Below, piece after piece: positions 18,896 through 23,440 of a stretch of DNA of 24,000 nt. Under the pieces are notes generated by a model. The model was not told where the DNA came from, made no database searches, and was given only the letters and a program-made list of their open reading frames with translations. Both the position numbers and the translations under genes were made by a program. Source of the DNA: Methanosarcina barkeri MS (GTDB lineage Archaea; Halobacteriota; Methanosarcinia; Methanosarcinales; Methanosarcinaceae); the NCBI RefSeq assembly GCF_000970025.1, contig NZ_CP009528.1:893168-917167 (forward strand), given 5' to 3'. Each line of letters begins with the position of its first letter. Position 1 is the first letter of the stretch.

Positions 18896-18944
18896 AACTA
18901 GAAGAGCTATAAAGAAAAATTCAGGGTTGGTGGGAGGTAACAGA

Positions 18945-19919
18945 ATGGATGCATTAAATAACTTGAAAATTAAAGGGCTAAAAAATCTAAAGATCAATGG
19001 ATTCAAATTTCTAAAAGTTAACGAATTAAAGCATTTGATACCTAAGCCTGGGGGCCGAGATGATATGGAACTGGGGGATTTGATAAAAAGTAAAAAGGAG
19101 GTTGAAATCAAAATCCGAACATTGTTTAGGGAAAAGGAAGATCTCGAATCCCGGATCGAAAAGAAAGAACTCGAATCCCGGGTTGAAAAGAAAGAACTCG
19201 AATCCCAAATTGAAAAGAAAGAACTTGAGTCCCGGACTGGTCGGCTTCAAGAAACCAAAGACGAAAAAAGGGACGAAATATCTGAGTTTCCCTGGAGAAA
19301 GGAAATCTTTCCCCCGCTTCGCAGAAATATGCATCACGAAGTATCCAGATCTCTTGAAGTTGAAACTGATACTTTGCAAAAAGAAGATACCGGAATCTCA
19401 GAGAGGATAGATAGCCAAACTGGTAAAAAAGTTGAAGAATCTGATAAATTTTTTAAATCAAAAGAAACCGGCGAAATCGAAGAGGCCAATATAACAGAGA
19501 TAGGGGTTAAAGAAGAAGCAAATTCTGCCGGTGAAAAAAATGATGTGAAAGGTGATGAAAAAGCCGATTTCGATGATATGAGAAAAAAAGCTGGAGAAAT
19601 TGCTTTTCTGGAAAATACAGACAAACCAGAAACTGTCGAGGTGGCTTTAGAAGATAATGAAAAAGGAGAAAATACAAGGCTTGTCTTAGAAAATAATAAA
19701 AAAGAAGAAGATAAAACTCCTGAAATGAGAAAAACTGAAAGTGAAAACCCTGCCCCTAGCATTTTTGGAAATAGCCTGATTCAGGAGTTGCTGGAAAGTG
19801 AGGAACTGTGCTCTGAGGAAGAGCAAAATTTCATGAAGTATATTGGGGAATCAAGTGTTTCTGAACTCATCGTAGATTTAAAAGAAGTAAAGGGCCTCCT
19901 TACCGAAGCAGGGTCCTGA
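18945..19919 (+). CDS. Glu/Lys-rich repeat protein of unknown function (probably coiled coil or disordered)
   Basis: The ATG at 18945 has SD ggaggt 6 nt upstream and is preferred over the listed TTG at 18927. N-terminal LK-periodic segment (LNNLKIKGLKNLKINGFKFLKVNELKHL). Four 9-aa repeats EK(K/E)(E/D)LES(R/Q)x. Long acidic tail. Same strand as arlJ and directly downstream of it. Confidence 0.6.
   Translation: MDALNNLKIKGLKNLKINGFKFLKVNELKHLIPKPGGRDDMELGDLIKSKKEVEIKIRTLFREKEDLESRIEKKELESRVEKKELESQIEKKELESRTGRLQETKDEKRDEISEFPWRKEIFPPLRRNMHHEVSRSLEVETDTLQKEDTGISERIDSQTGKKVEESDKFFKSKETGEIEEANITEIGVKEEANSAGEKNDVKGDEKADFDDMRKKAGEIAFLENTDKPETVEVALEDNEKGENTRLVLENNKKEEDKTPEMRKTESENPAPSIFGNSLIQELLESEELCSEEEQNFMKYIGESSVSELIVDLKEVKGLLTEAGS
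19131..19238 (+). repeat. In-frame 27-nt tandem repeat, 4 copies, inside the Glu/Lys-rich ORF
   Basis: gaaaag(g/a)aaga(t/a)ct(c/t)ga(a/g)tccc... Units at 19131, 19158, 19185 and 19212 encode EKEDLESRI / EKKELESRV / EKKELESQI / EKKELESRT. Confidence 0.9.
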
Positions 19920-20084: not shown

Positions 20085-20149
20085 AGTTCTTAAGATACAG
20101 CTTTAGAAGGAAGTTCTTAAGATACAGCTTTAGAAGGAAGTTCTTAAGA
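20085..20149. repeat. Tandem repeat, 27-nt unit agttcttaagatacagctttagaagga, 2 perfect copies plus 11 nt
   Basis: 20085-20111 and 20112-20138 are identical; 20139-20149 is partial. The array lies 18 nt downstream of the stop of the minus-strand small ORF. Confidence 0.95.
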
Positions 20150-20484: not shown

Positions 20485-20570
20485 GTACTGTCAAGTTGAT
20501 GGGTGTTAGACATTCTATAGGCTCGACTGTAGCTGGGAAAATTCCTTAACATCCGTCAACTTAACAGTAC
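20485..20570. repeat. 86-nt hairpin (terminal-inverted-repeat) element, copy 1
   Basis: gtactgtcaagttgatgggtgttagacattctataggctcgactgtagctgggaaaattccttaacatccgtcaacttaacagtac. Arms of about 25 nt are inverted complements around a loop of about 35 nt. About 6 mismatches relative to copy 2, same orientation. Confidence 0.9.
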
Positions 20571-21074
20571 CCCAAAATTAATTTTTCTCTTAAAAATTTG
20601 TCGACTGAACTAATAAAAATGAACCTTAAAATTATTCCACATCACTAAATTACATCTATCTTGTGTAATAATAATTAAATCTATGAGAAAATGCTATTGC
20701 ATAGCTAAATTGTAGGGTATTATTCCACAAAAATTTATTGATAAATAAATACATTTGGACTTTTTCTTTTTTATAAAAAATCAAGTGTCTTGCGGCGTCT
20801 TTTATCATATATTATGATTTTGGTCGATGTCTCTAAATTATAAAACAGGAATTTTTATAGACTTAACATATAGATGAAAATTATTATTTTTGGCATATAG
20901 CTCGTTAAATTTATTTGCAATTAAACTAAGGTTATTTATGGAGTTTGAAAGTATTTTCCAAGTTCAGGTGAGCTCCATAAAGTACACTTAAAGAGGCATA
21001 ATTAAGTTAGCTGTGCGTTTATTTAAGCTCGCTTTATTTTGTCTCCTATATATAAAATTACTGGGAGTAATGAA

Positions 21075-21176
21075 ATGATTAAAAATAAGGTTAAAACAAG
21101 TGTAATCTTTGCAGCAATCTTGCTAATGAGCATTGCTTTTGTGTCAGCTGTTAAGTGCACAGGAGAATGCACCTAA
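21075..21176 (+). other. Orphan signal-peptide reading frame upstream of, and out of frame with, the protease body
   Basis: The ATG at 21075 (SD gggag 7 nt upstream) encodes MIKNKVKTSVIFAAILLMSIAFVSAVKCTGECT* with stop TAA at 21174-21176. This is a classic n-h-c signal peptide with a VSA cleavage-type end. The frame differs by +1 from the 21133 ORF. Confidence 0.7.
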
Positions 21177-22188
21177 TGAGCTAAACGCGACTACGGAATT
21201 AACTTTTGGGCCGTGGACTCTTGATGAACTGAAAAGTAATCCAGATTTTATTTCTGCTTATGGAAGTATACCCAATTTTACAACTTCTGATGAGAAAAGA
21301 CAGTGGCTTTCTAATCTAGATACAATATATACTAAAGCTGATAAAAATTATGACAAGGAAATATCAAAGTATTTCTATCCAAATGGCTCTGTTATTGCTT
21401 ATGGTTATAACATTGACGGTGTTCTAAAAGTGACAATCAAAAAAGGACAAAAATTAGATAAAGCTAAAGAAAATGAAATTAATAATCTATTTTCTAGTTA
21501 CGGACAAGAAATTGGAATAAAGGATACTCCAGTAGTATTTGTATATGGAGACCTTATAGTACCAACTAGTCGTTCTAGCTCATGGAGACCCTTAATTGGA
21601 GGCATAAAAATAGTTACAGATTATGGAACATCAACCCTTGGTTTCGCTGCAAAGACCAGTAGTGGAACTAAAGGTTTTGTTGTTGCTGAGCATGCTGCAC
21701 CATCTATTGGAAGTAGTATATATCAACCAACGGCATCAAGTGCAAATTTAGTAGGAAGCGTAACTACGTATAGTAACTATGCAGCCGATGCCTCGTGGGT
21801 AACATATTCTAATGTCAATGCAAAAATATATGATCATGATACTGATGTTACAAAAACTGTAAAATCGTATGGGGATCCCAGTGTTGGACAGTATGTTTAT
21901 AAATCAGGCATAGCAACAGGAAGAACAGCGGGTACTATTACTGACAAAACTAGTGTATATAATAATGGCCTTGGAAAAACTTTATCTAATCAATATCTTG
22001 TAGGATACAGATGCGATTATGGGGATAGTGGTGCTCCTGTATATGTTTATGTAACTAATGGTGTTAAGATTGTAGGAATTCACTGGGGAGGTATTGGAAC
22101 ACATACATCAACTGGCTTCTCGTCTTCAGTGTTTTCACCAGTTTCTGGAGTACATAATGATTTACATGTATATCCTCTAACAGCATAA
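21133..22188 (+). CDS. S1-family (streptogrisin/alpha-lytic protease-like) serine protease with N-terminal pro-like domain; as written it lacks its signal peptide (possible frameshifted gene)
   Basis: C-terminal half: LIGGIKI...STLGFAAKTSSGTKGFVVAEH(187)AA, NYAAD(219)ASWV, YKSGIATGRTAGTIT, CDYGDS(299)GAPVY, IVGIHWGG...FSPVSGV. N-terminal region of about 130 aa is paralogous to the next ORF. The frame is closed upstream by TGA at 21127. Confidence 0.75.
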   Translation: MLLCQLLSAQENAPNELNATTELTFGPWTLDELKSNPDFISAYGSIPNFTTSDEKRQWLSNLDTIYTKADKNYDKEISKYFYPNGSVIAYGYNIDGVLKVTIKKGQKLDKAKENEINNLFSSYGQEIGIKDTPVVFVYGDLIVPTSRSSSWRPLIGGIKIVTDYGTSTLGFAAKTSSGTKGFVVAEHAAPSIGSSIYQPTASSANLVGSVTTYSNYAADASWVTYSNVNAKIYDHDTDVTKTVKSYGDPSVGQYVYKSGIATGRTAGTITDKTSVYNNGLGKTLSNQYLVGYRCDYGDSGAPVYVYVTNGVKIVGIHWGGIGTHTSTGFSSSVFSPVSGVHNDLHVYPLTA

Positions 22189-22351
22189 ATGTGTAACCAA
22201 AAAATTTGTTCAGTACAGCTCGCCTTTGAAATGCTACGATAAAATAAACGTGAATATTATATAACTTGCTTATTCAAAGATGAGCTATACTGACTCTTTC
22301 TTTATTTTTAAGTTCAATATCTCTTGTTATAATATGGAATGGGGAAGCTAA

Positions 22352-23050
22352 ATGTGTTTAAAGATATTAAATATTGCACTATGTGTCGTATTGGTAACTA
22401 TTCTGTGGAACTGTGATTTAGGTTCTTGTTCTCAAAATGGAGATGATGTTACGGAAAATATAACACTTAGTTTTGGTCCGGAAACTCTTGATGAACTGAA
22501 AAACAATTCAAATTTTATTGCTGCTTATGGAAAAATACCTTCTTTTGGAAGTTTGGAGGAAAGAAAACAGTGGCTTAACAAACTTGACGAAGTATATACC
22601 GGAACCGATGCGGAAATGTCAAAGTATATGTATCCAAATGGCCCTGTTACAAGATATGGTTACAGCATTAATGGTGTTCTTGAAGTAGCGGTTAATGAAA
22701 CAATTGAAAAGTCTTTGATGGATGAAATATATAAGATCTCGGATTCAAAAGCAAGCAAAATGGGAATTAAGGAAATCCCACTTGTGTTTGTGCATGGAGA
22801 TCTAGCGGTGCCAGTAGTAGGTGAAGCTGTACCAACTATTGAAACAGTAAATTCATCGACATCTGAAGAAAAAAATGCTGTAGAACTCAATAATTCAATT
22901 AATAATAATCCTAAGCTCAATAACGAAAACAGTTCAAACATTGATAAATCAGGTGAAAATAAACCTAATAAAAATAATTCTGTCCCAGGTTTTGGGCTAT
23001 TGGGAAGCTTGATTTGTCTATACGGTGGTTGGAAGTTTAGGATAAAGTAA
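22352..23050 (+). CDS. Secreted, PGF-CTERM-anchored protein consisting of a paralog of the protease pro-like domain
   Basis: 232 aa. Signal peptide MCLKILNIALCVVLVTILWNCDLGSC (lipobox-like LGSC). Domain SFGPETLDELKNNSNFIAAYGKIPSF...YMYPNGPVTRYGYSINGVLEV...LVFVHGDL. Asn/Ser-rich linker. C-terminal PGFGLLGSLICLYGGWKFRIK (PGF begins at 22985). Confidence 0.8.
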   Translation: MCLKILNIALCVVLVTILWNCDLGSCSQNGDDVTENITLSFGPETLDELKNNSNFIAAYGKIPSFGSLEERKQWLNKLDEVYTGTDAEMSKYMYPNGPVTRYGYSINGVLEVAVNETIEKSLMDEIYKISDSKASKMGIKEIPLVFVHGDLAVPVVGEAVPTIETVNSSTSEEKNAVELNNSINNNPKLNNENSSNIDKSGENKPNKNNSVPGFGLLGSLICLYGGWKFRIK

Positions 23051-23216: not shown

Positions 23217-23302
23217 GTACTGTCAAGTTGATGGGTGTTAGACACTCTATAGGCTCGACTGTAGCTGGGAAAATTCCTTAACACCTGCCAACTTGACAGT
23301 AT
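23217..23302. repeat. 86-nt hairpin (terminal-inverted-repeat) element, copy 2
   Basis: gtactgtcaagttgatgggtgttagacactctataggctcgactgtagctgggaaaattccttaacacctgccaacttgacagtat. Same orientation as copy 1. The left arm and most of the loop are identical (one loop mismatch); most differences are in the right arm. Confidence 0.9.
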
Positions 23303-23440
23303 CAAAATATATTAAAAGAGCGAATAGGTAAAAAATTATCAATGATATGTAATTTGATAAGTAACATAGTTTAAAATCCTGAAAGTTAAGGATCAGGTTT
23401 CGAACTATTCTGCCTGAACGCTCACATATAATATTTGTTC

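Follow-up and report, generated by a model that had tools for sequence, protein, structure and literature searches.

A predicted surface-anchored paralogue of the N-terminal domain of an S1E-like protease, encoded directly downstream of the protease in Methanosarcina barkeri and other Methanosarcinaceae

The stretch of DNA analysed here (the window, 24,000 nucleotides (nt) of the Methanosarcina barkeri MS genome) carries, near its 3' end, two neighbouring open reading frames (ORFs) on the same strand. The first, ORF A, encodes the precursor of a serine protease that resembles alpha-lytic protease and the streptogrisins (MEROPS S1E). The second, ORF B, encodes a predicted surface protein built around a paralogue of the N-terminal domain of that precursor; this shared domain is referred to below as ND. 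Judged by its recurrence at related loci, the pair is a conserved two-gene module of Methanosarcinaceae, and the copy of ORF A in the window is most likely a young pseudogene, as its signal peptide and mature protein are read in different frames. The features of the pair are as follows.

21133..22188, + strand: ORF A, an open frame of 351 amino acids (aa) counted from a TTG; S1E-like serine protease precursor without an in-frame signal peptide
21199..21567, + strand: ND of ORF A, residues 23-145, delimited by the structural model, the paralogy to ORF B and the family alignment
21568..21591, + strand: junction SRSSSWRP, immediately before LIGGIKI; candidate self-cleavage site after an aromatic residue
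21592..22185, + strand: chymotrypsin-fold catalytic domain, ORF A residues 154-351
21691-21693, 21787-21789 and 22027-22029, + strand: codons of the catalytic triad, His187, Asp219 and Ser299 (residue numbers of the 351-aa frame)
22189..22351, + strand: spacer of 163 nt, with same-strand genes on either side
22352..23050, + strand: ORF B, 232 aa, with a signal peptide, one ND, an Asn/Ser-rich linker and a PGF-type C-terminal anchor; frame intact
22466..22816, + strand: ND of ORF B, residues 39-155
22817..22984, + strand: Asn/Ser-rich linker of ORF B, with several N-x-S/T sequons (sequence reading)
22985..23047, + strand: PGF-type tail of ORF B, PGFGLLGSLICLYGGWKFRIK (motif reading)

These coordinates agree with an earlier note on this DNA, which had placed ORF B 163 nt downstream of ORF A on the same strand. 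ORF A is the same protein as WP_230629267.1, AKB53700.1, AKB58190.1 and AKJ38967.1. RefSeq describes WP_230629267.1 as an 'S1 family peptidase' of 349 aa with an internally placed start, and its relatives are annotated automatically as 'S1 family peptidase' or 'streptogrisin B'. The ORF B protein is found, identical, in 91 blocks of a public collection, M. barkeri assemblies among them.

The two proteins and their shared domain

The C-terminal domain of ORF A is a chymotrypsin fold closest to the S1E proteases, and its catalytic triad is intact. In a single-sequence phmmer search of the PDB, residues 154-338 matched SGPE (2sfa), alpha-lytic protease and SGPB with E-values (E) of about 1e-3; in these alignments AEHAA stands opposite AGHC and GDSG opposite GDSG, and His187, Asp219 and Ser299 fall on the known triads. 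The triad lies in the contexts AEHAA (at 185), AADASWV (at 217) and GDSGAP (at 297), and the residue numbers given in the earlier note fit the 351-aa frame. A family profile was built from 37 aligned sequences out of 49 relatives collected; the Asp and the GDSG motif are invariant among these 37, and the His is present in at least 90% of them. Searched against the PDB, the profile matched NAPase (1.2e-8) and alpha-lytic protease (5.8e-8), followed by SGPE, TFPA, SGPA and SGPB. The best 22 matches were all S1E proteases (E 1e-8 to 1e-4), and V8 protease and glutamyl endopeptidase were reached only at E above 5e-3. The AlphaFold2 model of mature ORF A has a mean pLDDT (predicted local distance difference test) of 89.8 and a pTM (predicted template modelling score) of 0.69. 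Its C-terminal 200 residues, compared with the PDB by Foldseek, matched 2sfa (E 1.6e-13, TM 0.87), alpha-lytic protease (TM 0.80-0.82), SGPB (TM 0.84), Lysobacter L1/L5, NAPase and TFPA, at E 1e-13 to 1e-11, target-normalised template modelling (TM) scores of 0.79-0.87 and 22-26% identity. The S1E-like domain with its triad, proposed earlier from sequence blocks, is thus supported alike by the profile search and by the model with its Foldseek matches.

Pfam did not recognise the protease in ORF A, its Trypsin models matching just a few of the relatives, and those weakly; on both ORFs together, Pfam and NCBIfam returned nothing beyond a weak Nal1_C match and an Rv1815-type serine protease match. 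Chains of rice NARROW LEAF 1 could also be aligned with the ORF A model over 345-400 columns, past the protease domain, with a root-mean-square deviation of about 23 Å and a different domain arrangement. The catalytic domain contains a single cysteine, with AEHAA where AGHC is usual, and many relatives contain none. The disulfides of S1E proteases (e.g. Cys42-Cys58) are therefore absent, as had been read from the sequence before.

In the ORF A model, ND consists of a short helix followed by a beta-alpha-beta-beta-alpha-beta arrangement. Residues 4-145 of ORF A and 21-155 of ORF B are 46% identical over 142 residues (E 3e-40), and the description of ORF B as a paralogue of this N-terminal domain alone is borne out. 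ND begins about 15 residues past the signal-peptide cleavage site and reaches straight to the catalytic domain, and therefore no other segment of the precursor could serve as a pro region. Between the two domains lies a junction with the consensus S-R-[TS]-S-x-W-R-P, followed by L-I-G-G-I. Of 50 proteins that combine ND with an S1 domain, 43 have Arg at position -7 and 44 have an aromatic residue at -3. The junction is a candidate site of self-cleavage after this aromatic residue: by alignment, the putative cut would leave four residues ahead of GG, like the mature alpha-lytic protease (ANIVGG).

The linker of ORF B is, given its sequons, probably a glycosylated stalk. The protein ends in ...NNSVPGFGLLGSLICLYGGWKFRIK, in which PGF is followed by a hydrophobic stretch and a basic tail; the PGF motif is kept in 51 relatives of ORF B, Pro212 being nearly invariant. 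NCBIfam, scanned with ORF B and with its 56 C-terminal residues up to an E of 10, gave no PGF-CTERM match (TIGR04126, a very short model), so the anchor is read from the motif alone. The PGF-CTERM tail proposed in the earlier note stands in its three sequence elements. The short PGF-CTERM model is reported to miss members from Methanosarcinales, and the same study describes archaeosortase A for one species of the order and counts, on average, about 20 PGF-CTERM proteins in each Methanosarcinales genome (PMC9723798). The 24-kb window contains no artA. At the other end of ORF B, the signal peptide (22352-22435) ends in ...NCDLGSCSQNGD, and a G-S-C-S-Q-N-G block is kept there in most Methanosarcina partners, its Cys being replaced by Ser in M. 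hadiensis. This block looks lipobox-like, and ORF B might therefore carry a lipid anchor at its N-terminus as well as the one at its C-terminus.

The spacer between the two genes is 155-163 nt long in Methanosarcina (window, L001, L015, L019, L012 and L011 compared), and two blocks within it, TTATTCAAAG.TGAGC.ATACT.AC and CTTTATTTTTAA, are kept across species of the genus. It probably contains the terminator of ORF A and/or the promoter of ORF B, or some other regulatory element.

Conservation of the pairing and decay of the protease

An ND-anchored gene lies directly downstream of the protease gene, on the same strand, at 11/11 protease loci for which downstream sequence is available, in at least three genera; some of these loci are orthologous, and they represent roughly eight independent lineages. 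The loci are listed here.

Window: ORF A, then ORF B
M. barkeri pair 1 (L001-L004): protease, with an ND-anchored gene downstream
M. spelaei, L015 (intact) and L012 (protease degraded): an ND-anchored gene downstream of each
M. hadiensis, L019: protease, with an ND-anchored gene downstream
Methanococcoides methylutens, L037/L038: protease, with a 241-aa ND-PGF gene 130 nt downstream
Methanolobus bombayensis, L039: protease, with two 2xND-PGF genes downstream
L041: protease, with three 2xND genes downstream that have an SGF tail in place of PGF
L055: ND+S1+dockerin protease, then a 182-aa ND-PGF gene
L063 and L064: protease, with an ND-anchored gene downstream of each

The paired proteases outside Methanosarcina are merely 36-42% identical to ORF A, and the genomic neighbourhoods differ from locus to locus. 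Co-occurrence of the two genes in other genomes, a point raised in the earlier note, therefore holds for every protease locus compared. The converse fails: in species-representative genomes, 12 loci with an anchored ND gene lack any protease within 8 kb.

In the window, the protease gene is interrupted at its very start, where the following features were found.

21075..21176, + strand: short frame encoding a signal peptide, MIKNKVKTSVIFAAILLMSIAFVSAV, then KCTGECT, with a stop at 21174-21176 (three-frame translation)
21091..21092, + strand: indel site 1, TT in AAGGTTAAAAC here; a single T in the L009-L011 allele, whose ATG is thereby out of frame
21151..21152, + strand: frameshift site 2, TT in GCTGTTAAGTG here as against a single T in the L009-L011 allele (DNA alignment)

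The ATG at 21075 opens the signal peptide in a frame other than that of the 351-aa ORF A, and the extra T at 21151-21152 splits this signal peptide from the mature protein. Position 21075, taken earlier as the start of ORF A, thus belongs to a different frame. The L009-L011 contigs come from a strain that is 99.4-99.7% identical, and in this region they differ from the window solely in the length of two T runs, by one T each; both runs lie in a G-T(T)-A-A context, within 60 nt of each other. In the window allele (TT, TT) the ATG shares its frame with the hydrophobic core of the signal peptide, and the mature protein is read in another; in the L009-L011 allele (T, T) hydrophobic core and mature protein share a frame, and the ATG lies outside it; a mixed allele (TT, T) would restore one intact frame. 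An intact allele is found in a close relative, in which the 370-aa P0285 reads MIKTKVRTSVIFAAILLMSIAFMSAVSAQEN... in one frame. The second M. barkeri pair is also intact, comprising P0003 (370 aa) and a 247-aa partner separated by a spacer of 162 nt.

Sequencing error was ruled out as the cause of the frameshift: the window allele is real, because it is found, identical, in independent assemblies (L031, L032, L033 and L034, two from NCBI and two from Logan). Programmed frameshifting was likewise ruled out, the sequence at either indel site containing no slippery motif. Both frameshift alleles encode the same mature ORF A protein, without a single difference, and the disruption is therefore recent. 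With the signal peptide out of frame, the protease of this genome is not secretable as encoded, and ORF A is probably no longer exported; the statement in the earlier note that the protease is secreted does not hold for this genome. The clustering of the two indels could reflect independent inactivation or on/off switching.

Decay of the protease is seen elsewhere too. In M. spelaei (contig_66, L012 53-863), a second protease copy is broken by a frameshift and a stop, and the ND-PGF gene downstream of it (P0055) is intact. Some solitary ND-PGF genes are chimeric (P0071 of M. barkeri 3; P0044, P0045 and P0047; locus L005/L013 4001-4648): their first 35 residues or so, covering the signal peptide and the start of ND, match a protease gene, and from there on they resemble the anchored type. 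Such chimeras are, by their composition, the expected outcome of ND-ND recombination deleting the catalytic domain. That the protease is lost time and again, be it through a frameshift, through degradation or through deletion, with the partner kept, reads as a pattern typical of a harmful secreted enzyme whose partner protects against it or controls it. The presence of a partner after every protease, the frequency of orphan partners and this recurrent loss together argue that the protease depends functionally on its partner. Physical association of the two protein types is also pointed to by a single genome, that of Methanolobus sp. WCC5, which encodes both a dockerin-bearing ND+S1 protease (P0218) and a cohesin+2xND+PGF protein (L027).

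Surroundings of the gene pair

The pair lies between an archaellum operon upstream and an aconitase-family gene downstream, the latter on the opposite strand, and its guanine-cytosine (GC) content is 0.32-0.35, compared with roughly 0.34-0.49 in the rest of the window. Directly after the archaellum genes (18927-19919) is a 330-aa ORF that is rich in Glu and Lys and contains repeats of the KKELESR/Q type. In AT-rich non-coding DNA upstream of the pair (20085-20138), a 27-nt unit, AGTTCTTAAGATACAGCTTTAGAAGGA, is tandemly duplicated without a mismatch. The pair is flanked by two copies of a hairpin repeat.

20485..20578, + strand: hairpin repeat of about 90 nt, upstream copy
23217..23310, + strand: hairpin repeat, downstream copy, 90% identical to the upstream copy and in direct orientation

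The two copies are 2.73 kb apart, and the predicted RNA fold has an energy of -38.9 kcal/mol (z -4.76); several assemblies end inside this repeat. The idea that the repeat delimits a mobile cassette dedicated to these two genes was ruled out, because related copies occur on other Methanosarcina-like contigs without these genes. From this distribution, the repeat is a dispersed element like a miniature inverted-repeat transposable element (MITE) or a repetitive extragenic palindromic (REP) sequence. A plasmid search with the DNA of the gene pair gave no match, and Rfam and tRNA scans of the window found nothing.

Possible roles of the anchored domain

S1E proteases need their pro region for folding, and the pro region inhibits the mature enzyme. 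In other protease families, paralogues of propeptides that are encoded on their own have an inhibitory role (MEROPS I9 and I29; Spi of SpeB). Against this background, the arrangement of the pair suggests the following mechanism. The first gene encodes a secreted, disulfide-free S1E-type protease, with a precursor made up of a signal peptide, an alpha/beta ND of about 120 aa, the SR-x-S-x-W-R-P junction and the catalytic domain. The ND of the protease itself would be an intramolecular pro-like domain, removed at the aromatic residue of the junction. The product of the second gene carries a single paralogous ND, or several, on a stalk rich in Asn and Ser, and would be fixed to the surface of the producing cell by the PGF-type signal. 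The anchored ND would bind the protease via the surface that the protease's own ND uses, and would thereby keep the enzyme inhibited and/or tethered at the envelope of the producer, protecting its exposed protein S-layer. Binding of the protease by the anchored ND on the producing cell, as an inhibitor and/or tether, is the explanation that we favour among those considered, and we would give it somewhat less than an even chance.

A further-reaching version may also be considered, in which ND would be a new, archaea-centred family of propeptide-like inhibitors fixed to the surface by archaeosortase. The two genes would then form a protease/immunity pair, with a lytic protease directed against the envelopes of neighbours and an own S-layer coated with anchored pro-like copies; anchored genes that stand alone would count as orphan immunity genes, and the repeated decay of the protease would be a consequence of what it costs the cell. 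This version appears unlikely to us.

The distribution of ND bears directly on these proposals. An exhaustive search with an ND profile returned 480 representatives of clusters formed at 50% identity, at E up to 1e-3, with 299 at E up to 1e-10. Named sources of ND are Methanosarcina, Methanolobus, Methanococcoides and Methanomethylovorans; one metagenome-assembled genome each is labelled as Methanobacterium and as a bacterium, both matches being on short contigs. Architectures were counted for the 140 newly returned proteins among the best 150 of the 480 matches: 21 combine ND with an S1 protease, about 90 carry one to three NDs and a PGF-type or other C-terminal anchor, and the remainder consist of ND only and may be fragments. 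ND is also fused behind NosD/beta-helix (P0149, P0189), HEAT-repeat (P0153, P0200, P0255, P0279) and cohesin domains (P0187, L027:7332-8924, L028:6882-8471), always adjoining the linker and anchor, and some ND proteases have a C-terminal dockerin (P0218 and P0247 among them). The NDs of the ORF B type cluster with those of Methanosarcina proteases. Within a genus, protease ND and anchored ND are 39-59% identical, compared with 24-37% for the same type of ND across genera, and gene conversion or repeated duplication is therefore indicated.

Several of these observations, together with others, weigh against a pro-like inhibitor. By these counts, ND is not private to the protease; it recurs as a module in many anchored surface proteins, and these are more numerous than the proteases. 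Such a widespread and modular domain could therefore have a generic role as a stalk or in oligomerisation. The designation of the shared domain as a pro-type domain found no backing in similarity searches: Pfam PF02983 had no match in ORF A or in its 37 aligned relatives; the ND profile gave chance matches only against PDB sequences, none of them to the pro region (2pro/4pro) present there; and hhalign of ND with the alpha-lytic pro region by itself, and with alignments of three and seven pro regions of this type (from the PDB, database matches and actinobacterial plasmid genes), yielded probabilities of 0.04-0.2%. The order of elements in ND (helix, hairpin, helix, strand, tail) may resemble that of the C-terminal half of the alpha-lytic pro region. 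Moreover, the anchored NDs do not have the SR..W junction that substrate-like binding in the active site would need, and the pTM of the model (0.69) does not by itself fix the packing of ND against the protease.

The same observations lend themselves to an explanation in which ND is a general stalk or oligomerisation module near the envelope. A protease that has no anchor of its own would keep its ND so as to dock, by ND-ND contact, on an anchored scaffold that displays the active enzyme. This would account for the position of ND next to the linker and anchor in otherwise unrelated surface proteins (NosD-ND-ND-PGF, HEAT-ND-PGF, cohesin-ND-ND-PGF), often in tandem, for anchored ND proteins being far commoner than proteases, and for ND having no sequence link to known pro regions; dockerins on some of the proteases and cohesins on some of the anchored ND proteins likewise follow the logic of a scaffold. 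A cohesin-dockerin pair would, however, be redundant if ND-ND docking sufficed. No S1E catalytic domain is known to reach its fold unaided by a pro region, for which ND is the sole candidate here, the strongly kept aromatic junction resembles a processing site, and the decay of proteases next to partners that are kept fits protection better than display. We hold a display scaffold to be the main alternative, possible if on the unlikely side. The anchored ND might instead be a folding catalyst or maturation factor acting in trans at the membrane surface, helping the exported protease to reach a kinetically trapped native state without inhibiting it. The alpha-lytic pro region does work in trans, the partner is always encoded directly downstream, and its ND is nearer to the protease ND of its own genus than to NDs of its own type elsewhere (39-59% as against 24-37%). 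The protease nevertheless has an ND in cis, which makes a second foldase seem needless; solitary anchored NDs and fusions of ND to non-protease enzymes would be left unexplained, and ND has no homology to the pro regions known as foldases. Such a role appears improbable.

There is, finally, the possibility that the two genes are not functionally coupled at all, the pair having arisen by local tandem duplication of a common surface domain and consisting, in the window, of a pseudogene beside an unrelated surface protein, a decaying remnant. The frameshifts in ORF A in the window and in the sister allele, the degraded or deleted protease copies elsewhere, the position of the pair in a low-GC stretch between dispersed hairpin repeats and the plausibility of gene conversion between the two NDs would all suit such an origin. 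This explanation is hard to reconcile with an order kept at 11/11 loci across genera, in differing neighbourhoods and with proteases down to 36-42% identity; intact copies exist, and the identity of mature ORF A between the frameshift alleles makes its decay very recent. We therefore give it little credence.

Like alpha-lytic protease and the streptogrisins, ORF A has a chymotrypsin fold with the same triad, its best sequence and structure matches being to these enzymes, and it belongs to a type of secreted precursor whose N-terminal domain directly adjoins the start of the mature enzyme (LIGGI here, IVGGI there). It differs from them in an N-terminal domain without detectable similarity to PF02983, in the absence of disulfides (one Cys) and in its archaeal host. 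For inhibition by the anchored ND, the closest parallels are SpeB/Spi, I9 (yeast PBI2) and I29 (CTLA-2, crammer), in which a separate gene is likewise a paralogue of the protease's own N-terminal domain; spi even lies directly downstream of the protease gene, and self-protective inhibition is the role expected here as well. These inhibitors are soluble (Spi being cytoplasmic) and act on another class of protease, whereas ORF B is predicted to be exported and PGF-anchored. The earlier note was not aware of a described archaeal pairing of this kind, and for archaea the literature searched contains no pairing of a protease with a paralogue of its N-terminal domain; in bacteria, SpeB/Spi is a precedent.

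The modular spread of ND has a parallel in PepSY, which Yeats, Rawlings and Bateman are said to have described in 2004 as the propeptide domain of M4 peptidases, occurring also alone or in tandem on membrane-anchored proteins, and which has been proposed to control protease activity near the cell. PepSY resembles ND in its position at the N-terminus of secreted proteases and in being far commoner, single or in tandem, in anchored proteins that are not proteases. The two differ in sequence family (ND has no Pfam match), in the class of protease and in the anchor, which is an N-terminal helix in PepSY proteins and a C-terminal PGF-type signal in ND proteins. With the PGF-CTERM substrates of archaeosortase A, such as the haloarchaeal S-layer glycoprotein, ORF B has in common a PGF motif, hydrophobic helix and basic tail after a linker rich in Ser, Asn and Thr that is probably glycosylated; unlike them, it has no reported match to TIGR04126, and its relatives at L041 have SGF for PGF.

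If ND were merely a stalk module, it would form an ordinary lineage-specific family of surface proteins beside an already annotated S1 peptidase. ORF A offers a disulfide-free relative of the classic model of kinetically trapped folding, with a different sequence in the pro position, and is thus a useful comparison for folding studies. To our knowledge, archaeal secreted proteases of the alpha-lytic type, and the means by which cells with an S-layer survive their own proteases, are essentially unstudied, and the propeptide-paralogue inhibitors known so far are soluble bacterial and eukaryotic examples. If the anchored ND does inhibit or tether the protease, the pair would represent a surface-anchored version of the same idea, and a function would be given to the large ND family (about 480 clusters, absent from Pfam), which accounts for a considerable part of the PGF-anchored proteins on the surface of Methanosarcinaceae.

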